DNA of 64,000 bases, taken from NCBI GenBank assembly GCA_963724325.1, contig CAVRUH010000001.1, positions 352,001 through 416,000 of the forward strand. The letters are read 5' to 3'. The translations under genes and the position numbers were made by a program. This stretch comes from Waddliaceae bacterium (GTDB lineage Bacteria; Chlamydiota; Chlamydiia; Chlamydiales; Waddliaceae). Below, piece by piece: positions 1,029 to 15,530 of this stretch. A model generated the notes under the pieces. It made no database searches. It had not been told where the DNA came from and saw only the letters and a program-made list of their open reading frames with translations. Within the stretch, counting starts at the first letter, position 1. Each line of letters begins with the position of its first letter.

Positions 1029-2633
1029 TTAAAAAACAATTTTTTTGTTGAAACAGTCAAGTGCTAATATCTTAAGAGATATCTTTTCTATTTGGTTAAG
1101 GACTCTTATGCCTTCATTATCAAACTCTAGGCTTTTTAAAGGGGAAATTGGCAAAACAATTCTGGAAAAAACAATGAAAAACTTTGCTCTATAATAGGGG
1201 TCTTTCATTTTCTTAACAATTTCGATTGCAAGCTCTTGATCGTACGGAAACATTTTTTTCGAATCATTACCAAGGACAAAATCTTCGCTATTAGACTCTT
1301 CAATATGCTTAAGAGCATTTTTGAATAATTCTTTTCTCTTTGCTGGATATGCTATTCCCATGTCGATAAAAATATCAGAGTATAGTGAACTGGAACTTAT
1401 CAAATTCAGTGTTTTGATTGCTAGTTCTGGATCTATTTCAGGAAGTTTTTTGCAAAAATCGATTAGTCTAAAATCCCGAATTTTATGGGATTCAATTTCA
1501 TCTATTGCCTCCATTGCCGATTTAAAAACTACTTCTGCAATTTCTGGTGCCCATAAAGTGAAGGCATATGCAATGCTTCCAAGAGCCTTTGATCTATTTG
1601 AAGGGTTATTAATTTTGCTGGCCAAAATATGGGCCTCATTCAGCATTTTGATCGCTATTTTATAGTCGGATGCTGCGAAATTCTCAGTGATTATGCAACA
1701 TGATGTGATTCGAAAGAAGATATCCTTGATTGATTCGAGCAGGGGTATCGCCAGAAATGGATTTATCTTTGCGATGATAAATATGATATCTTCGATGACC
1801 GCGTCATGAATTTTTGGATCTAATTGTTCCTTTACAATAGTGATCATATTTTCGAAGCATTCCACTGCTTTCTTTTCCTCTAAATTTTTAGCTGTTTCAC
1901 ATAACATGAGTATCTTCATAGCTGGATCGTCTATTAGACTAGCAGTCTTAAGACATAGATCTAATACTTCATTTTTTTGTTTATCCTGTAGCATTTTGGC
2001 AACACATAATAACGCTTTGGTTTTCTTAACCTGATCTGTAATTGTTAAAGCAAAACTCAAAGCTAGTTGTGGATCACTCTTAGAACATTTTCTTGCAAGA
2101 AATTTAATTAGATCATCTATTTCGTTTAGATAATCAAGGGTTAAAGCATATTTATGGGCTTCAATAAATATTTCAGAGCTTGCTTGTGGATCGAGAAATT
2201 CTGCGATATGAATAAGAGCTTCAATTTGGCAATATTGATTTGTGATTCCTCGTGCTATCGTAAGAGCATCTTTAAGGGTACCCGTGAGAGCATAAAATTT
2301 AGGAATCAGCCTTAGAGAGTTAACGGCTATTTTGTCCCCTTCAGATTTCATAATTGCACCAATGATATTGCAATGTCTTTTGTTTAAAATTTTTTCGACA
2401 TACGAGGCATCATTAAGGAGTTGGCGACAGAGAACTTTTTCCGTTGCAAAAGGCAGCAAATGAGGAACCTCGCACAAAATAGGGGCAACAAGCTTCGGAT
2501 CCAACCATATAACTTTTCTATGATACCAATTTGTACAGGAAAAGCTGATGCGATCCTTAAAATCTAAATGACTTATGATATTCTGAAGTATTTCTAGGGG
2601 TAGTGTAGGGTATATTGTTTCATTACTGACCAT
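1029..2633 (-). CDS. F-box protein with alpha-helical (TPR/HEAT-like) repeats, putative effector
   Basis: N-terminal LPLEILQNIISHLDFKDRISFSCTN fits the F-box consensus; the remainder shows recurring helical units such as A..I.DP..K...L..IA. Confidence 0.8.
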   Translation of the reverse strand: MVSNETIYPTLPLEILQNIISHLDFKDRISFSCTNWYHRKVIWLDPKLVAPILCEVPHLLPFATEKVLCRQLLNDASYVEKILNKRHCNIIGAIMKSEGDKIAVNSLRLIPKFYALTGTLKDALTIARGITNQYCQIEALIHIAEFLDPQASSEIFIEAHKYALTLDYLNEIDDLIKFLARKCSKSDPQLALSFALTITDQVKKTKALLCVAKMLQDKQKNEVLDLCLKTASLIDDPAMKILMLCETAKNLEEKKAVECFENMITIVKEQLDPKIHDAVIEDIIFIIAKINPFLAIPLLESIKDIFFRITSCCIITENFAASDYKIAIKMLNEAHILASKINNPSNRSKALGSIAYAFTLWAPEIAEVVFKSAMEAIDEIESHKIRDFRLIDFCKKLPEIDPELAIKTLNLISSSSLYSDIFIDMGIAYPAKRKELFKNALKHIEESNSEDFVLGNDSKKMFPYDQELAIEIVKKMKDPYYRAKFFIVFSRIVLPISPLKSLEFDNEGIRVLNQIEKISLKILALDCFNKKIVF

Positions 2634-7185: not shown

Positions 7186-9108
7186 TCATTTCGTTTCGTA
7201 TGGAGAAACTAAGCTGCGCTCATTTTTCTCGTTGGTAATTGTTTTTATAAAATCGTCAGCCTTAAGCTCTCCGTGAACAACATTGTCACGGGTGCGCAGA
7301 TTGATGGTTTGGTTTTCAACTTCTTTATCGCCGATGGTCAGGATGTAGTTGATTTGAGTCAATTGGGCATTTCTGACTTTCTTGCTGACGGATTCGTTGC
7401 TTAGGTCTATGTCGCAGTGGAATCCTGCTTTTTTGAATTTCTTTGCAAGTTCGGTTGCGTATTCAATATGACGGTCGGCCACTGTAAGAAGTCGAATTTG
7501 CAAGGGGCTGATCCATACAGGAAATTTTCCGGCAAAGTGTTCGATAAGGATTCCGAAGAAACGTTCGATGGATCCAAATATGGCCCTATGAAGCATAACA
7601 GGCCGTTTTTTGGAGCCGTCATCAGCGGTATATTCCAATTCGAATCGTTCTGGCAGGGCCATATCGAGTTGGATTGTTCCGCATTGCCAGGTTCTGTTGA
7701 TAGCGTCGCGGATGTGGAAGTCAATTTTAGGGCCGTAGAAAGCACCATCGCCTTCATTGATTTTGTATTTATAACCAGAGTTATCAAGTGCATTTTTGAG
7801 GCCGGAAGTGGCGATTTCCCAATCTTCGTCGGTACCGATGGTGCCTGTTTCTGGTCTTGTAGAGAGTTCTAGGTGGTAAGATAGACCGAAGGTTTTGTAT
7901 AAAGTATCTGCAAATTTCAGAATAGCTATAATTTCGGATTCGATATCGCTAGGCTTCATGAAAAGGTGGGCATCGTCTTGGTGGAAGCTTCTCACGCGGA
8001 ATAGCCCGGAAAGAGCTCCTGAGGGCTCGTAGCGGTGTACATTGCCGATTTCAGCGACTCTTAGTGGGAGTTCTCTATAGCTATGAGTGTGTGTTTTATA
8101 GTATAGCATGCAACCTGGGCAGTTCATTGGTTTAATAGCGAAATCGTGGTCTTCGATGATTGAGGTAAACATGTTATGACGGTAGTTCATCCAGTGTCCG
8201 GAGCGTTCCCAGAGTTCTTTTGAGAGCATGGTTGGTGTTTTTATTTCGACATAGTTCTCTTCCAAAAGCCGTTCGCGGAGGTAGGAAGTAAGTTGGTTCC
8301 AAATGATCATGCCTTTTGGGTGGATGAATGGCATGCCCGAACCCTCTTCTTTTAGAGAAAAGAGATCGAGTTTTGTACCGATGAGTCTATGGTCGCGCTT
8401 TTTTGCTTCTTCAAGTTGGTGGAGGTATTCTGCTAGTTGTTCGCGTTTGGGGAAGGTGATTCCATAGATTCTTGTGAGCATCTCGTTTTTGGAATCGCCA
8501 TGCCAGTAGGCTCCTGAAGTTTTAAGGATTTTCAGGGCTTTAATTTTTCCTAGATTTGGAATATGCGGACCGCGGCAGAGATCAAAAAACTCACCTTGGC
8601 GGTATCCTGTAAGGCCTAATGAGGGATCAAAGCTTTCTATGAGTTCGACTTTATATTTGTTATCAGAGAAAGTTTTTAAAGCCTCTTGTTTGGAGGATAG
8701 GACAACTCTTTCGGATTTGTAGTTTTCGTTAACAACAGCTTTCATTTCTTTTTCAATTTTGTCAAAATCTTCTTCAGAGATAGTGAGGTTGGCAAAATCG
8801 TAAAAGAAGCCGTTCTCTATAGGGGGGCCAATTGTTGGTTTTGCATTAGGATAGATCCTGAGGATTGCTTGGGCGAGGACGTGTGCAGAAGAGTGCCAGA
8901 AGACTTCTCTTCCCTCTTTATCGTCGAAAGAGAGAAAAATGACCTTGTCGCCATCGTTAAGAGGAGAACTTAAATCGAAAGTTTTTCCGTTGATTTTAGC
9001 TGCTAGGGCTTGGTCGGGACCGTTTAGTTTAAGTTTATCTGCGAGGTCTTTAGCTGAGCTTTGCTCAGGGAGTTCGATGATCGAATCGTCCATTAAAGTA
9101 ATTTTCAT
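7186..9108 (-). CDS. thrS: Threonine--tRNA ligase
   Basis: TGS domain, HSSAH, DLCRGPH, KPMNCP, WQCGTIQLD. Confidence 0.98.
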   Translation of the reverse strand: MKITLMDDSIIELPEQSSAKDLADKLKLNGPDQALAAKINGKTFDLSSPLNDGDKVIFLSFDDKEGREVFWHSSAHVLAQAILRIYPNAKPTIGPPIENGFFYDFANLTISEEDFDKIEKEMKAVVNENYKSERVVLSSKQEALKTFSDNKYKVELIESFDPSLGLTGYRQGEFFDLCRGPHIPNLGKIKALKILKTSGAYWHGDSKNEMLTRIYGITFPKREQLAEYLHQLEEAKKRDHRLIGTKLDLFSLKEEGSGMPFIHPKGMIIWNQLTSYLRERLLEENYVEIKTPTMLSKELWERSGHWMNYRHNMFTSIIEDHDFAIKPMNCPGCMLYYKTHTHSYRELPLRVAEIGNVHRYEPSGALSGLFRVRSFHQDDAHLFMKPSDIESEIIAILKFADTLYKTFGLSYHLELSTRPETGTIGTDEDWEIATSGLKNALDNSGYKYKINEGDGAFYGPKIDFHIRDAINRTWQCGTIQLDMALPERFELEYTADDGSKKRPVMLHRAIFGSIERFFGILIEHFAGKFPVWISPLQIRLLTVADRHIEYATELAKKFKKAGFHCDIDLSNESVSKKVRNAQLTQINYILTIGDKEVENQTINLRTRDNVVHGELKADDFIKTITNEKNERSLVSPYETK

Positions 9109-9211
9109 TATCTTGCCTTATAAGTATGGTTTCATTGACTACCTATACTACAATAAATGTAACTTTCTAGCAATTCTTGTGTATATATCAGCAGACGAAT
9201 ATGATAAGAAT

Positions 9212-12037
9212 ATGGAAGAGAAAAAAATTAATGAACTTTTGGAGAAAATAGGGATACCCTTCGAAGATGGTCAGTTTTCTATGCGGCTGTTTAGAGAAAT
9301 TGATCAGGAATATGGCGAGATATCGCGTAATGCTGATATATCTGGAATTCAAGAAGGATGTGCAATTCGTAACATTCTAAAAACCAGAGAGATGGCGATT
9401 GCTATGATCAATGATGATGGCAAATTGGAAGAGCCTATTTTGGAAAAATATATCAAGCAGGTGTCCGCCAATCTATACTCATTAGATCCAAGCAGGGAAG
9501 CAGATGCGAAACGAAATGAACGAATAATTAGGGTTTTGAATCAGTTGAAATCGGATAAGGCGCTTGTTAAGGCATTGAATCGAGTCGGAAAGCCTCACAT
9601 GCACAAGTATGCCGATCAAATCATTAGAGATACCTTAAATATCCCGCCAAAAACCATTGTAACAGATGCTCATGCACGCAGGGCAGCTTTGTCGGCGCTA
9701 TTATGTTTTTTGCGACAAAATGTTGGCTCCTGTTTTGCTACAGCCCCTGCCATAATGGTTCATGATGAACAGCCTGACGTATTTCTTAATGATCTTCAGG
9801 AATTATTATCAACTGGAAGATTAAAAAGAACTTTCGGGGGTGTAGAGTATGCCGTTCCATTAAGTACAAGTTGGGGGGCCGGAGATCTGAAGAGAAAAAT
9901 TCATGCATCGGATGAAATTTGGAAATCTCCTGGATTGCAATTGGCATTTGAAACAGTTGGCATCGTCAATAAGCAACTTTCGCTTGAAGAAAGAACATGG
10001 ATTTCTCCAGAAGAGATTATTCAGCTAGTCCTTCAAGATCACTTTAAAATTAGTATAAAAGATATTGAGGAGTACGAAAACCGTCCAAAAGGAATGATAC
10101 ATGGCGGATTATTAATGCAACCGCCTATGACCGGATCAATTTTGGAGGGAAAAAGTCAGAATTATGAACACTACATTCAAGCTTTAGAGTCAGCTAAAAG
10201 TGCGTTTAAAGGGATTGAAGACAATGCTTTGCTTAAATCATGGGAATTTTCCTTGGCATCATTTTCAGAAACAAAATCGCAATTTACAAGATGGAATCTA
10301 TATTCCAGCCTTGGTTTGGGCCCTAATGAAGAAGGTGGAATAGGCCCATGTCTCATCGAAATCCTTCAAAAAAAACTTAATGAATGCAATGAAAAAGTTA
10401 AAGAGCATCAGGCAGAATACGAACAGCTGCACAATCAATTACAATTCATTCAAAGAAAACTCAAGAATGTCGGTAGTGAACAAGAGGCAAAATGGGTGAG
10501 GATCGAATACCAAACCAAAGTAAATGAATTTAATCTTCAGGAGGAATTGAGAAATAAGTATCATTACAAAGCACAAAAATATGCAAATTTTTTTGACGAA
10601 CTTGTTCACTTGTATGATAAAATTTTTCCAAAATTTTTCCAGGAAATTTATGACGCTGATATACATGAGGTGACCGCAGGACCTTATGACGATAGCCCTG
10701 CCGGTTTTCGTCTTGTGTACAAACACGGTAGAAGCAACACATCTCAGTGGACAAAAATTGAAAATCATTTCGACTTTATCGATGCTTTAACAAACTTTTT
10801 TGTCGCATCAGAAACTGAAATAGCGGGCGCTCCTGAAATGGCGAATCTGCAGGATGACGTTTCAGAAATTACATCGTCCATCGTAAATCATGTCCGTTCA
10901 AATGTTTTTCTTGAAACAGCATTCAATCGCATGGCAATCGCACACAACTCTCCTATTATTAAAGATCCGCTTGAAAATCTTGACAAAATTGAAAAAAAAC
11001 CCTGGGTATATACTTCTGGAGGGGCCATGGTCACTCTAGTTAGCTGTTACTTTAAACGAAACGAAAAGCCAACTGATGTGTCACGCTGGGTTGACAATCC
11101 AATGGAACTCCTTGTTTTCTTGGTAGATTCCATTAAAGAAATCCCAGATTATGTAAAAGATGAATTTGAGCAAAATCACGAAAAAGCCCTTTTAATGCAT
11201 TCACCAACACATGCCTTTCTATTAAAACCTGGTTACTCTCCATTTATTAGAGCTTGGAGAAATAAAGAATTCACCTACACATGGATTAGAGATAACCTTC
11301 TACGCAACAATGAACAATTTTGTAAGAAAATATACTTGGATGACGAGAAAATGAGATTCATCATCGATCATCTTGCCAAAAAAGTTTCGATTAATTATCG
11401 CTATTATTTTAAAGAAGTGTTTGGCTCCCTTGGCGGCGCCCTGACAACTAAAGATTTCCGCGAACATATCATCGACACAATGGAATCAACAATCGGTCTT
11501 CAACATAGACGACAGCACGTTTTAAGGGGGGAAGAAATTGATGCAACACTCTTTGAACAACTCCCCATCATCCCGACATATAAGCTAAAAGATCAAATCC
11601 AAATAGTGATTTCCGAACTCCCAGGCATCGATACAACCACTCAAGAAACTATTTTGAAAATCTATGATGATATTTCAGGAAAAATTGGTTCGCCAAAATT
11701 AGTTGGATCAAAATCATTTAAAGAACTAATCAAATCATTGATAATGCTAGCAACAAATAGTACTACCTCTATTTATGACTACACAAAACTCATTGCAGAA
11801 GTGGCTCAGAAACATGAATTCGCTCTTCCTCGCCCAATTATCTTTGCCGACACAAACTGGGTCAAAGACTATTTTGCTTTCCTTGTAAACCCAGGAACAT
11901 ATCAAACAGAACTATGGAGAACAGACTACACTGGCTCCGTTGGCGCTCCTATGGCCATCTGGGAACAATGGCTGAATGGCTCTCACAAAACCCCCACATG
12001 GGGCATCTATCCAAAACGCGTCGAATACAAATTCTGA
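9212..12037 (+). CDS. Large conserved chlamydial hypothetical protein (~940 aa) with papain-like motifs
   Basis: Long ORF; start moved to ATG 9212 to avoid overlap with thrS; RQNVGSCFA, THAFLL and DTNW motifs; central coiled coil. Confidence 0.75.
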   Translation: MEEKKINELLEKIGIPFEDGQFSMRLFREIDQEYGEISRNADISGIQEGCAIRNILKTREMAIAMINDDGKLEEPILEKYIKQVSANLYSLDPSREADAKRNERIIRVLNQLKSDKALVKALNRVGKPHMHKYADQIIRDTLNIPPKTIVTDAHARRAALSALLCFLRQNVGSCFATAPAIMVHDEQPDVFLNDLQELLSTGRLKRTFGGVEYAVPLSTSWGAGDLKRKIHASDEIWKSPGLQLAFETVGIVNKQLSLEERTWISPEEIIQLVLQDHFKISIKDIEEYENRPKGMIHGGLLMQPPMTGSILEGKSQNYEHYIQALESAKSAFKGIEDNALLKSWEFSLASFSETKSQFTRWNLYSSLGLGPNEEGGIGPCLIEILQKKLNECNEKVKEHQAEYEQLHNQLQFIQRKLKNVGSEQEAKWVRIEYQTKVNEFNLQEELRNKYHYKAQKYANFFDELVHLYDKIFPKFFQEIYDADIHEVTAGPYDDSPAGFRLVYKHGRSNTSQWTKIENHFDFIDALTNFFVASETEIAGAPEMANLQDDVSEITSSIVNHVRSNVFLETAFNRMAIAHNSPIIKDPLENLDKIEKKPWVYTSGGAMVTLVSCYFKRNEKPTDVSRWVDNPMELLVFLVDSIKEIPDYVKDEFEQNHEKALLMHSPTHAFLLKPGYSPFIRAWRNKEFTYTWIRDNLLRNNEQFCKKIYLDDEKMRFIIDHLAKKVSINYRYYFKEVFGSLGGALTTKDFREHIIDTMESTIGLQHRRQHVLRGEEIDATLFEQLPIIPTYKLKDQIQIVISELPGIDTTTQETILKIYDDISGKIGSPKLVGSKSFKELIKSLIMLATNSTTSIYDYTKLIAEVAQKHEFALPRPIIFADTNWVKDYFAFLVNPGTYQTELWRTDYTGSVGAPMAIWEQWLNGSHKTPTWGIYPKRVEYKF

Positions 12038-12190
12038 AAATCATCATCGATTTGCGGATTTTCATTTACAAATATAGGCAATGTTTCATATATATATTGC
12101 CAGAACTTTGGGATAAGTAGATTTTTTGAGGCTTTCGAGAATAATCCCAAAGTATACTTTCCATTGGAACAACTTAAAACGGAGAAAACA

Positions 12191-13582
12191 ATGAAGTTCT
12201 TCAAAGCATTATTACCGACTATGATGATGGTAGGGATGTTTTCTTTAACTCTACTGAGTGCAGAAAACAATCGCAACATATTGACCCGTTCATACGACTC
12301 TGCATTAGAAAGTCGACATGAAACTGAACTCACAGAAAAAGATTGGGAGGAGCTCTATAACTTAATTAACTCAAAACGAACAATCACACTCGCAGAAAAA
12401 AGCAATAACCTAACAATTGCCGGCGACGTTCGTGTCTTTTGGAGACATCCTAGAGAAGTATTTCACAGACGCCATAGCAGCAGTAGCAGCAGCGAAGAAA
12501 GCGGCAGTACAGAGATCGAAACCAGCTTTTCTGATGAAATTTCAGCATTTAGCGACAGCAGCGGTAGTTCAAGTCATTCAAGAGAAAATCATTTCTCTCA
12601 TGATAACTACTTCGATGTAGCACTCAACCTATACTTAGATTATGTGTGCGATCGCACATGGGCCGTTGCTCAACTTGAATATTTTAATAGCATGGGCATT
12701 GATCATAATCGCAATAGTTGGAGAGAACGCGAAAGTATGGATGGCAGCGGAGACGATGATAATCTGAACTTGAAAAAAGCTTATCTAGGCTATAACATAT
12801 GCTGCGGCGGTGATTCCCGTTTTGATATCGAACTAGGTCGCAGAAACCTCTACCACGTATTTGATTCAGAAGTAGAATTCCTAAGCCGTTTTGATGGCCT
12901 TCTTTTGAGATACACTGGCGCTTGGGATTGTTTATTCGACTACCATTTATACGTGGGCGGATTTGTCATTGATGAAAGAATAAACCAATTTGGATGGATT
13001 GCAGAAGTTGGCGCTGCCAATATCAATGATACACATTTTGATGCGTTATATTCGTTCATAGATTGGAAGAAAAACGGTACAAACAGATATCATGTTCACG
13101 ATCCTAAAGGAACCGATTTCTTGGTTTCTCAATGGTTGGTAAAGTATCATGTTGATCCAAACTTGACATGGTGCAGACCTTCACACTTCTATGGTGCATA
13201 TTTGAGAAATCATGATGCACGTAGATTAGAGCATCACAAACATAGAAGAAACAGTGCCTGGTACGTTGGTTACAGAATGGGCGAAGTTTTCGAACAGGGT
13301 GATTGGGCATTTGATGTTCAGTACCAATATGTCGAAGCTTTAGCAATACCCGATCAAGATGTTTCTGGCATCGGTCGTGGCAATTACTACGGTGAAACTG
13401 TAATATCAGAAGAACGTCTTGGAAATGGCAACTACAAGGGTTGGAGAGTTGAGTATTTATACGCAATTACTGATAACCTTAGTATCGATGCTTTCATAGA
13501 GGCCTCTAGAGCTGCAGATCAAGAAATTGGTGGAAGACACCGCTTCTCAGAAGTTCAAGTTGAAATGATCTACGCATTCTAA
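12191..13582 (+). CDS. Outer-membrane beta-barrel protein (CT623/'CHLPN 76 kDa-like' putative porin family)
   Basis: GGAGA RBS, signal peptide, IAGDVR and GIGRGN motifs, amphipathic beta strands, C-terminal YAF; Ser-rich insert. Confidence 0.75.
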   Translation: MKFFKALLPTMMMVGMFSLTLLSAENNRNILTRSYDSALESRHETELTEKDWEELYNLINSKRTITLAEKSNNLTIAGDVRVFWRHPREVFHRRHSSSSSSEESGSTEIETSFSDEISAFSDSSGSSSHSRENHFSHDNYFDVALNLYLDYVCDRTWAVAQLEYFNSMGIDHNRNSWRERESMDGSGDDDNLNLKKAYLGYNICCGGDSRFDIELGRRNLYHVFDSEVEFLSRFDGLLLRYTGAWDCLFDYHLYVGGFVIDERINQFGWIAEVGAANINDTHFDALYSFIDWKKNGTNRYHVHDPKGTDFLVSQWLVKYHVDPNLTWCRPSHFYGAYLRNHDARRLEHHKHRRNSAWYVGYRMGEVFEQGDWAFDVQYQYVEALAIPDQDVSGIGRGNYYGETVISEERLGNGNYKGWRVEYLYAITDNLSIDAFIEASRAADQEIGGRHRFSEVQVEMIYAF

Positions 13583-13586
13583 GCTG

Positions 13587-13742
13587 CTGTGGCCTGCTGC
13601 CTCCTGTGGCCTGCTGTCTCCTGTGGCCTGCTGCCTCCGGCAGCAGGCCGCCGGCTCTCGGAGAGAGCCGGCCACATCTTGTTCCGGCTCTCGGAGAGAG
13701 CTGGCCACATCCTGCTCCGGCTCTTGAAGAGAGCTGGAGCAC
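13587..13742. repeat. GC-rich tandem hairpin repeats (3x17 bp then 3x33 bp) between convergent genes
   Basis: ctgtggcctgctgyctc at 13587, 13604, 13621; ccggctct-N-agagagcygg hairpin units at 13651, 13684, 13717. Confidence 0.9.
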
Positions 13743-13747
13743 ATTTA

Positions 13748-14578
13748 TTATTTAAAAATTGGGCTTTGATATACGTCTTTAAGGGAATAGAATTTGGTGA
13801 TTGTTTCACCAACTTTATAGACTAAATAATTTTTCTCTTGTGATATCGTATATGTGTGCAACTTTCTTTCATCATTCAAAACTTCTAGTATATAATTGGC
13901 CGGTGTCGAAGAATCTAATCTTATTTTCTTTATGCCAACTTTCAAAGTCTTGTCGAATTCATGCAAAAGATTCGCATTTTTTCCAAGTGCTATGGGATGA
14001 AACCAAGTTTGTTCCATTATCTTTACTAGACGACCAAATGGGTACTTGTGTGTCGTTTTCCAGTTATTACTATTGAACACGAGCCTACAAATATCTTCTC
14101 TTAAATCCTTGGGAACTTTGAGTCTATTTAGAATCAAAAATATGTTCTTCGATATTTCACTTATTAATTTAATGTCTTGGGGCAAAAATACCGGAGCAGA
14201 TAGGGCACAATTTACCATTGAGATATTAAGATAGGAACTAAATTGCCAACGAAATAAGCAACAATTATTGCAGCCATAATTACATAAACCGGATGCAAAA
14301 ACATATCCAGATAAAAATTGTGAACAATATATAGCATTGAAAAAAAATCTATCAGCAATGTAAACAGTCTTGGAATTTTTCGGATAGAAAAGGATCTGAT
14401 TTGTATGTATGATTGGTTGGCAATAATGTTGATGACCTGTAGTGAATTTGGGTGATTTTGTCCGCTCAAATTCAAAATTATTTACTTCTTTTAAATATAG
14501 TTGTTTTTCGTGCTCGAAAAAAAGATTATGATAAAATTGTGTTGTTGATAAATCTATATTTGAATTCATCGTAATCAC
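13748..14578 (-). CDS. Putative effector with C-terminal SH2-like domain (paralog 1)
   Basis: C-terminus WFHPI..NANLL..VGIKKIRLDSSTPANYILEV..KLHTYTI..FYSLKDV follows the SH2 pattern; AGGAG RBS before GTG. Confidence 0.65.
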   Translation of the reverse strand: MITMNSNIDLSTTQFYHNLFFEHEKQLYLKEVNNFEFERTKSPKFTTGHQHYCQPIIHTNQILFYPKNSKTVYIADRFFFNAIYCSQFLSGYVFASGLCNYGCNNCCLFRWQFSSYLNISMVNCALSAPVFLPQDIKLISEISKNIFLILNRLKVPKDLREDICRLVFNSNNWKTTHKYPFGRLVKIMEQTWFHPIALGKNANLLHEFDKTLKVGIKKIRLDSSTPANYILEVLNDERKLHTYTISQEKNYLVYKVGETITKFYSLKDVYQSPIFK

Positions 14579-14602
14579 ACTTTTCTCCTTATCATTTTGG
14601 AA

Positions 14603-15427
14603 TTATTTAAAAATTTTACTGTCATACACGTCTTTCAGGGAGTAGAATCTGGTGATATTTTCGCCAACTTCATAGACTAAATAACCATCCTCTTGTAATA
14701 TCGTATATGTATGCAACTTTCTTTCATCATTCAAAACTTCTAGTATATAATTGATTGGTGTCGAAGAATCTATTCTTATTTTTTTGGTGCCAACCTTTAA
14801 TTGTGTATCGGATTCAGACAAAAGATTTCCTTTTCTAGGTGCAATAGGGTCAAACCAAGTTTGTTCCATTATCTTTACTAGACGACCAAATGGGTACTTG
14901 TGTGTCGTTCTCCAGTTATCACAATTAAACACGTGCTTACAAATAATTTCTCTTAATTCCTTGGGCACTTTGAGTCTATTTAGAATCAAAAATATGTTCT
15001 TCGATATTTCACTTATTAATTTAATGTCTTGAGGCAAAAATACCGGAGCCGCTATGGCAATTTTCACTATTGATTTATTAAAATAGGCGCCAAATTGCTT
15101 TTTAAACGACATGCAATCATCGCAGAAATCCCGGCAAAACTTGCCTCCATAATCATAAATATAAAAATGTTTTAAATAATACGTATAATTATAAAAAAAC
15201 CTATCGGCAATATACACAGTCTTGGTTCCCTCTGGATTAAAAAGGAACTTATTTGTATGTATGATTGGTTGGCAAGAATAATAATTTGTATTGAATGCGG
15301 GCGAATTAGACTGTTCAAATTCAAAATCACTTGGCATCTTTAATTTAACCTGCTCATTATACTCTGAAAAAAGTTCCTGATAAAATAGTACTGTAGATAA
15401 ATCTTTATTTGAATCCAGCGTATTCAC
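14603..15427 (-). CDS. Putative effector with C-terminal SH2-like domain (paralog 2)
   Basis: Clear paralog of 13748..14578; start placed at GTG 15427 behind AAGGAG (the ORF track extends to 15463). Confidence 0.65.
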   Translation of the reverse strand: MNTLDSNKDLSTVLFYQELFSEYNEQVKLKMPSDFEFEQSNSPAFNTNYYSCQPIIHTNKFLFNPEGTKTVYIADRFFYNYTYYLKHFYIYDYGGKFCRDFCDDCMSFKKQFGAYFNKSIVKIAIAAPVFLPQDIKLISEISKNIFLILNRLKVPKELREIICKHVFNCDNWRTTHKYPFGRLVKIMEQTWFDPIAPRKGNLLSESDTQLKVGTKKIRIDSSTPINYILEVLNDERKLHTYTILQEDGYLVYEVGENITRFYSLKDVYDSKIFK

Positions 15428-15530
15428 ATTTTTCTCCTTGTTGATTCGGAATTTGGCAGTCATTCTACCAGAGAACTGAATTACCGTCTAATGTATACGA
15501 GAAGTACTTTCACACTGTTTAGAGAGGGTC

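Follow-up and report, generated by a model that had tools for sequence, protein, structure and literature searches.

Tandem paralogs from a Waddliaceae genome with a probable, much-diverged SH2-like tail

A 64,000-nucleotide stretch of DNA from a Waddliaceae bacterium (contig CAVRUH010000001.1, positions 352,001 to 416,000; hereafter the window) carries two intact tandem paralogs on its minus strand, at window positions 14603-15463 (P0002) and 13748-14578 (P0001, also P0003). By fold and homology, each of them probably ends in an SH2 domain that has diverged strongly. Our overall reading, which we consider fairly likely, is that the two are exported and adaptor-like, contain a degenerate SH2 module and belong to a tandem-duplicated chlamydial family; we infer their secretion, the binding of a phosphorylated ligand and the host target. 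The pair is probably a very diverged addition to the bacterial SH2-domain proteins, which have so far been described only from Legionella and its relatives.

The gene pair is genuine, intact and under selection. P0002 and P0001 were 66% identical over 276 aa (BLASTP expectation value, E, 3e-128), and their tails were 76% identical. They are the two tandem proteins described in an initial annotation of this DNA, whose end coordinate, 15427, is the GTG codon of P0002. Both contain the strings on which that annotation was built, WF(D/H)PI..NLL..VG.KKIR(I/L)DSSTP.NYILEV..KLHTYTI..YLVY..FYSLKDV and LNRLKVPK(E/D)LRE.IC. Comparison of the paralogs gave a synonymous divergence (dS) of 0.54 with a nonsynonymous-to-synonymous ratio (dN/dS) of 0.71 for the N-terminal 123 codons, and a dS of 0.51 with a dN/dS of 0.33 for the C-terminal 82 codons. 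The tail is therefore the part of the protein with the clearest purifying selection. The dS of the middle 69 codons was only 0.10 as compared with 0.51-0.54 in the flanks, which suggests that the tandem copies recently underwent gene conversion, confined to the helical region.

SH2 likeness of the tails

Relatives of the pair were few. A word-indexed protein search found nothing beyond the two window proteins. An exhaustive HMMER search over 1.84 billion representatives returned four proteins at E<=1e-3, one of which was the window's own paralog; the remaining ones were P0004 (2.1e-10), P0005 (3.8e-10) and P0006 (2.3e-4). The same-genus genome G195, a Waddliaceae metagenome-assembled genome, encodes three family copies inside 6 kb (277, 270 and 263 aa). 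Among 400 scored Chlamydiota genomes, significant family matches occurred only in the window's genome and in G195. Three further genome matches at E 0.001-0.008 were short, and two of these were broken by stop codons. As judged from these searches, the family is small and lineage-restricted, comprising one genus and two metagenomic relatives.

The SH2 signal was detected through these relatives. Pfam scans were reported to E<=10, and the gathering score of the SH2 profile (PF00017) is 21 bits. The three G195 paralogs scored 16.7, 16.9 and 19.8 bits, just under this cut-off (E 8.3e-4 to 8.2e-3), and their matches spanned profile positions 14/19/20-76 of 77; P0005 gave no Pfam SH2 match. Of the three, the 263-aa paralog has the tail nearest to the SH2 consensus. 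Searched against PDB sequences, the six-member family profile found SH2 proteins in 17 of 19 matches at E<=10 (RasGAP, SHP2 and Grb2; best E 0.022), the other two being phage portal proteins. For a profile of the G195 tails, all 12 PDB matches were SH2 (Syk, CHK/MATK, CSK and VAV2; best E 0.017). The C-terminal SH2 domain (C-SH2) of Syk and the G195 tails aligned end to end, from WF via LVR and His to F.TL..(I/V)V.

The window tails were connected to the G195 tails by hhalign (P 2.4e-4, probability 44%). In this alignment, the Gly, the Arg, the His, the LV pair and the F..(L/I)K(D/E) helix all matched, and the BC loop differed by an indel of 2 residues. Alignment of the window tails with 16 Pfam-positive chlamydial SH2 domains gave P 0.012, with Arg placed on Arg and His on His. 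The G195 tails alone gave P 0.021 against the same 16 domains, and the combined five-row tail alignment gave P 0.0024. A hidden Markov model (HMM) of the G195 tails ranked a window gene at the top of the 9871 open reading frames (ORFs) in the window's genome, yet with an E of 1.5. In the ESM Atlas, the P0002 tail had no usable match. The nearest clusters of a G195 paralog were SH2 families, including a Chlamydiota cluster; with a score of 0.82 this is a lead only.

A predicted structure of modest confidence was in line with the sequence alignments. The AlphaFold model of full-length P0002, calculated from a 2-sequence alignment, had a predicted local distance difference test (pLDDT) value of 32.6 and was not used. 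The model of P0002 residues 136-286, calculated from a six-sequence alignment, reached a pLDDT of 55.2 overall and 57-77 across the last 60 residues. It contained three low-confidence helices followed by six strands and a short terminal helix, and helix alphaA was not confidently formed. Fold searches identified model residues 76-151 as the portion that resembles SH2 domains. About 30 of the 40 Foldseek matches listed were SH2-containing entries, judged by title except for 2qms. A Foldseek comparison, which had been suggested with the initial annotation for the C-terminal 90 aa, thus returned mostly SH2 among the matches listed, with a best E not under 0.17. In a wide VIA-align search, 26 of the 28 tail-covering matches listed were SH2, the exceptions being a PBP homolog and OspB, and 22 further matches listed paired the helical part with generic bundles. 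The leaders were Spt6 SH2 domains (Z 6.0, 5.7 and 5.5) and RasGAP (Z 5.4), with a root mean square deviation of 3.4 Å over 68 residues for the best match; all Z values were <=6, and a Z below 8 may reflect a common arrangement.

From these alignments and the model, we propose betaA at W203, betaB5 at R230, the BC loop at D232-S-S-T-P236, betaD4 at H251 and alphaB at F273-Y280 (P0002 numbering). The chain stops six residues past Y280. Since the proteins end within alphaB, this helix is short, and the BG loop and betaG are missing. The SH2-like tail put forward initially was thus supported only through the G195 relatives and the modest AlphaFold model, and it found no direct match for the window proteins themselves. 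We call the assignment probable; it draws on relatives and on marginal statistics.

Phosphotyrosine pocket, proposed role and alternatives

We propose that each protein joins a fast-evolving N-terminal portion of about 120 residues, a conserved three-helix middle and a diverged, shortened SH2 fold of about 85 residues. The tail would keep the central sheet, the betaB5 Arg, the Ser/Thr-rich BC loop and the betaD4 His, with a poorly defined alphaA, a truncated alphaB and no specificity pocket. Both proteins would be exported into the host cell. There, the SH2-like tail would dock on a phosphorylated host protein, probably one phosphorylated on Tyr, or on another phosphorylated effector, and a second activity or contact would reside in the N-terminal and middle parts, which are specific to the family. 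The context is effector-like. The genes have 31-32% GC as compared with 40% for the genome, and the locus is not syntenic with G195. The genome encodes a FHIPEP (SctV-type) export gene and has 14 F-box-like matches, and genuine SH2 proteins with eukaryote-type partners are common in the phylum.

The names of the pocket positions used here (betaB5, betaB7, betaD4 and so on) follow the Src nomenclature. The betaB5 Arg is kept in both window proteins, as first noted: R230 of P0002 and R220 of P0001 fell on the Arg in the G195 tails, and on the LLR Arg in the 16 chlamydial SH2 domains. The G195 Arg in turn aligned with the FLIR Arg of Syk. Given the 2-residue loop indel of the hhalign register, this Arg is present in five of the six family members and is missing from P0005. 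The betaD4 His (H251 of P0002, H241 of P0001) is also present in the G195 paralogs, and the BC loop of the window pair reads D-S-S-T-P.

The rest of the pocket makes phosphotyrosine reading by the window pair doubtful. The FLVR motif is indeed degenerate, with KKI in place of FLV before the Arg, and the betaB strand reads KKIR in the window pair versus (L/C)VR in the G195 paralogs. Two Lys residues thereby occupy positions where SH2 domains have hydrophobic residues. At betaB7, the window pair has Asp and the G195 paralogs have Asn or Ser. Only P0002 has an Arg at W+7; it is absent from G195. The alphaA2 Arg is not conserved, and betaD6 is not basic in the window pair or in the G195 paralogs. 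The pocket of the window pair is more degenerate than that of G195 (KKIR, betaB7 Asp). It is therefore quite possible that phosphotyrosine binding has been lost or altered in these two copies. On the basis of these residues, the G195 proteins may plausibly bind phosphotyrosine, whereas binding by the window pair is doubtful.

A rather unlikely alternative to our reading follows the same residues further: the SH2-derived tail would no longer read phosphotyrosine and would serve as a structural module, or as one that binds a ligand which is unphosphorylated, acidic or phosphorylated on Ser/Thr. The KKIR strand, the betaB7 Asp and the lack of conserved basic residues at alphaA2 and betaD6 are in line with this, as are the Spt6 SH2 domains as best structural matches. 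A precedent is found in Legionella, where some LeSH homologs are reported to be inactive and LeSH1a/1b are deficient in phosphotyrosine binding (PMC6208348). Against this alternative, both paralogs retain, under purifying selection, the Arg at betaB5, the His at betaD4 and a BC loop rich in Ser and Thr.

The SH2 assignment itself also faces a series of adverse results. P0001 and P0002 had no SH2 match in Pfam, merely sub-threshold OB_Dis3 and YpmT matches. None of the 11 matches of P0002 in a phmmer search of PDB sequences was SH2, and neither were the two matches of a two-sequence tail profile of the window pair. An HMM of the 16 chlamydial SH2 domains, built on a poor alignment (mean column identity 24%), left the window genes outside the best 30 of the 9871 ORFs in the window's genome. 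All SH2 scores were marginal, with E values of 0.001-0.02 and hhalign probabilities of 4-44%; Foldseek gave no E below 0.17, the VIA-align Z values were low and the confidence of the model was modest. The model is also not independent of the sequence signal, because its alignment includes the SH2-like G195 rows, and it provides corroboration rather than proof.

The missing direct matches, the marginal statistics and the low to moderate confidence of the models would suit an explanation in which the SH2 likeness is convergent or due to chance, the tail is another small alpha+beta fold and the lineage-specific proteins have an unrelated function. A tail-only HMM of the window pair, which missed the G195 tails in the best 12 of 9874 sequences, points the same way. 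We consider this explanation improbable: four partly independent routes (Pfam on relatives, two PDB profile searches, hhalign and the fold searches) share one register, and the match lists for the tail contain almost only SH2.

The initial annotation had further likened the helix upstream of the tail to an F-box, SOCS or Cullin-box helix, a likeness that the tests did not support. Pfam F-box, F-box-like and SOCS_box profiles had no match in any of the six family members at E<=10. None of the genome's 14 F-box-like matches (PF00646/PF12937) lies at the gene pair, and SOCS_box (PF07525) had no match anywhere in the window's genome at E<=1. Alignment of the middle region with seven genuine F-boxes of the same genome gave an hhalign P of 0.15 and a probability of 0.4%, whereas a genuine G195 F-box, used as a positive control, gave P 8.7e-10 over 41 columns against the same seven. 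The former alignment was limited to 11 columns, which placed the ELREIICKHVF helix on F-box helix 1. The LxxxxC spacing of the candidate helix differs from BC-box spacing, its Cys is not conserved in the family, and the helical part of the model resembles generic helical bundles only. The helix also lies N-terminal to the SH2-like part. In SOCS proteins, the SOCS box is placed after the SH2 domain, not before it.

These results make it very improbable that the proteins are substrate adaptors in which an SH2 domain and an F-box/SOCS-box helix deliver phosphoproteins to host cullin-RING ligases, even in a genome rich in F-box proteins (seven of the 14 matches above the cut-off) and with an F-box gene, the positive control above, directly after one G195 family member. 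In another chlamydial genome, one protein has a clear SH2 domain (49 bits) after an N-terminus with an F-box-like match below the threshold (19.8 bits). The F-box-like N-terminus at locus L012 failed the same hhalign test (P 0.16), so the combined F-box and SH2 architecture is unconfirmed.

Known SH2 systems and the chlamydial repertoire

Comparison with eukaryotic SH2 domains (PF00017; best with Syk C-SH2, p120RasGAP C-SH2, SHP2 N-SH2 and Spt6) showed the same order and spacing of landmarks. These are the W(F/Y) of betaA, the G-x-x-x-x-R about 27 residues on, the Ser/Thr-Pro BC loop, the betaD4 His and the F-x-(S/T)-(L/I)-x-(D/E)-(V/I) motif at alphaB, and the predicted central sheet superposes on SH2 structures. 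Unlike eukaryotic SH2 domains, the window family lies under every curated threshold, has an ill-defined alphaA without a conserved alphaA2 Arg and carries the KKIR strand. The window proteins stop in alphaB without a BG loop, betaG or a +3 pocket, and their N-terminal region has no known family. Among SOCS proteins, the SH2 domains of SOCS2 and SOCS3 were among the weak Foldseek matches listed, whereas no SOCS box is detectable in the window pair. An N-terminal helix that would pack before the SH2 part is reminiscent of the extended SH2 subdomain.

Kaneko et al. 2018 counted 93 bacterial SH2 domains, which came without exception from Legionella (40 species) and Coxiellaceae (2 species), with the clusters LeSH, LUSH, RavO and DoSH and with domains that lack a specificity pocket (PMC6208348). 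A 2020 review likewise places bacterial SH2 domains only in Legionellales. Like the Legionella SH2 effectors, as far as these sources describe them, the window pair comes from an intracellular, amoeba-associated lineage and combines a probable eukaryote-type SH2 part, a betaB5 Arg, no specificity pocket and an expansion of paralogs. A role as translocated effectors is likely in both. Unlike the Legionella proteins, the pair belongs to another phylum, where type III export is expected instead of Dot/Icm type IV, and it has neither the highlighted betaD6 Arg nor a CPD or U-box partner domain. No Legionella chain appeared among the PDB sequence matches or the fold-search matches listed; absence from such lists of weak matches leaves kinship possible.

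The view that bacterial SH2 domains are mainly a matter of Legionella, from which the initial annotation started, agrees with the literature covered here and not with the genomes. Of the 400 Chlamydiota genomes sampled, 30 had SH2 matches above the Pfam cut-off (74 had matches at E<=0.1); the 14 control genomes had none. Inspection covered 14 loci, with Pfam-positive proteins at L012-L023 and L031, and SH2 domains of the (Y/F/W)LLR type were clear in 12 ORFs. Among the architectures are three SH2 domains with a tyrosine phosphatase (PTP), PTP with SH2, two SH2 domains with Peptidase_C80, ankyrin with SH2, SH2 with a sub-threshold DnaJ match, a sub-threshold F-box-like match with SH2, tandem SH2 and solo SH2 proteins of about 130 aa. 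The SH2 and Peptidase_C80 proteins have the arrangement of Legionella RavO/LeSH5. G195 also encodes an SH2-phosphatase gene. We found no paper on chlamydial SH2 domains in the literature searched, subscription journals and supplements lying outside that search. From these matches, a bacterial SH2 class appears to be widespread and undescribed in Chlamydiota.

The window family resembles these other chlamydial proteins in having the SH2 part at or near the C-terminus of lineage-specific proteins; several of them are short as well, with betaD leading almost straight into alphaB. It differs in that the others score 26-87 bits on PF00017, keep the canonical (Y/F/W)LLR strand and have PTP, Peptidase_C80, ankyrin or DnaJ partners. 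The two groups are weakly alignable (hhalign P 0.0024-0.021) and have nothing in common outside the SH2 part. The full-length family HMM found nothing under E 0.57 among the ORFs near 14 chlamydial SH2 loci.

We put forward tentatively, as a possibility somewhat short of likely, that a large chlamydial repertoire, so far undescribed, mimics phosphotyrosine signalling, was acquired or evolved independently of Legionella and has the pair as its most diverged visible members. It would include SH2 readers fused to tyrosine phosphatases (SHP-like), to C80 cysteine proteases (RavO-like), to ankyrin repeats and to J domains, and the family would be a new SH2 subtype attached to a novel helical module with an effector role. 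In that case, intracellular bacteria associated with amoebae would have turned to reading host phosphotyrosine repeatedly, and the strategy would not be a peculiarity of Legionella. SH2-type readers in a second phylum of obligate intracellular bacteria would revise the picture confined to Legionellales, and would suggest that the tyrosine-phosphorylation signalling of amoebae and other protists is commonly targeted by endosymbionts and pathogens. The chlamydial repertoire would then include families too diverged for curated profiles and would supply minimal SH2 scaffolds without a specificity pocket. For the pair itself, the immediate value is more modest: two orphan proteins receive a domain assignment that can be tested.

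Gene starts, protein parts and genomic setting

The features of the gene pair are collected in Table 1. The two GTG codons lie at homologous positions of the paralogs, and in the family alignment the GTG of P0002 is in register with Met1 of the sister-genome homologs. Because of the preceding ribosome-site sequence and of this register, GTG 15427 is more likely to be the start of P0002 than ATG 15463, as far as the sequence can indicate. With 24 nt between the stop codon of P0002 and the start of P0001, the pair is probably co-transcribed.

Table 1. Features of the paralogous pair in the window
Feature	Position	Strand	Description or basis
P0002, upstream paralog	14603..15463	-	286 aa from ATG 15463; 274 aa from in-frame GTG 15427
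P0002 ribosome-site sequence AAGGAG	15434-15439	-	6 nt before GTG 15427
P0001/P0003, downstream paralog	13748..14578	-	276 aa from GTG 14578
P0001 AAGGAG	14585-14590	-	6 nt before GTG 14578
Cys patch of P0002 (C110, C114, C117; CxxxCxxC)	15113..15136	-	Translation
Cys patch of P0001 (C99, C103, C106, C107)	14258..14284	-	Translation
Middle region of P0002, residues 136-202 (PVFLP..., LNRLKVPKELRE, NWRTTHKYPFGRLVKIMEQT)	14858..15058	-	Family alignment, AlphaFold helices
Middle region of P0001, residues 125-191	14006..14206	-	Family alignment
SH2-like tail of P0002, residues 203-286	14606..14857	-	hhalign, AlphaFold, fold searches, dN/dS
SH2-like tail of P0001, residues 192-276 (R220, H241 = R230, H251 of P0002)	13751..14005	-	Alignments

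The middle region, for which AlphaFold predicted three helices with low confidence in P0002, is the best-conserved part of the family. The family invariants P140, P144, R171, W184, P191, R194, L195, W203 and F204 (P0002 numbering) lie in this region and at W203-F204. The N-terminal portion of about 120 residues is fast-evolving. The Cys patch pointed out initially (FCRDFCDDC in P0002, LCNYGCNNCC in P0001) is present in both window proteins; no Cys occupies this place in P0005 or in the three paralogs of the sister genome, so that the family alignment confines it to the window's pair.

Within the middle region, NWRTTHKYPFGRLV (window 14870-14930, P0002 residues ~178-198) resembles SWPTTHKYPLGHFV in the CSD2 domain of yeast Rrp44/Dis3 (PDB search, E 0.016). 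Pfam OB_Dis3 (PF17849) scored 13.6-14.7 bits, below its 22.8-bit threshold, and in the window pair only. Kinship with Dis3 CSD2 was rejected as probably due to chance, the W.TTHKYP.G string being absent from the other four family members.

The window's genome (2.37 Mb, 40% GC) belongs to Chlamydiota. A look-up of sequencing runs listed no RNA run, and four DNA metagenome runs from a single study matched in small shares (0.11-0.17 of words). Besides the pair, the window encodes UPF0137 (pGP6-D-type), ParA, TatC, an F-box protein and a tolB-pal-lysM-murI cluster. This F-box protein (534 aa, window 1029-2633; Pfam F-box E 2.3e-7) is one of the 14 genome matches (C1:354508-354606). In G195, the genuine F-box gene (L003:1443-2111) overlaps the end of a family member by 17 nt, and these genes possibly share a transcript. 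Three related genomes retain the tolB-pal-lysM-murI cluster; the genes that come after murI in G195 are unrelated, and the family lies at another place in that genome.

Two ORFs of the window lie at 8939-12037 and 12164-13582, and neither is found next to murI in G195, G199 or G044. The former encodes 1032 aa and has no Pfam family. The latter encodes 472 aa, likewise without a Pfam family; with its hydrophobic N-terminus, Ser-rich stretch and C-terminal Phe, the product looks outer-membrane-like. The gap between convergent genes at 13584-13745 is filled by a GC-rich tandem repeat, consisting of 3.1 copies of a 17-bp unit and 2.6 copies of a 33-bp unit. The repeat belongs to a dispersed family with longer arrays, for example at C5:32038-34040, C1:211119-214485 and C7:31881-31978. 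One repeat unit, at 13713-13741, forms a terminator-like hairpin with a 13-bp stem.

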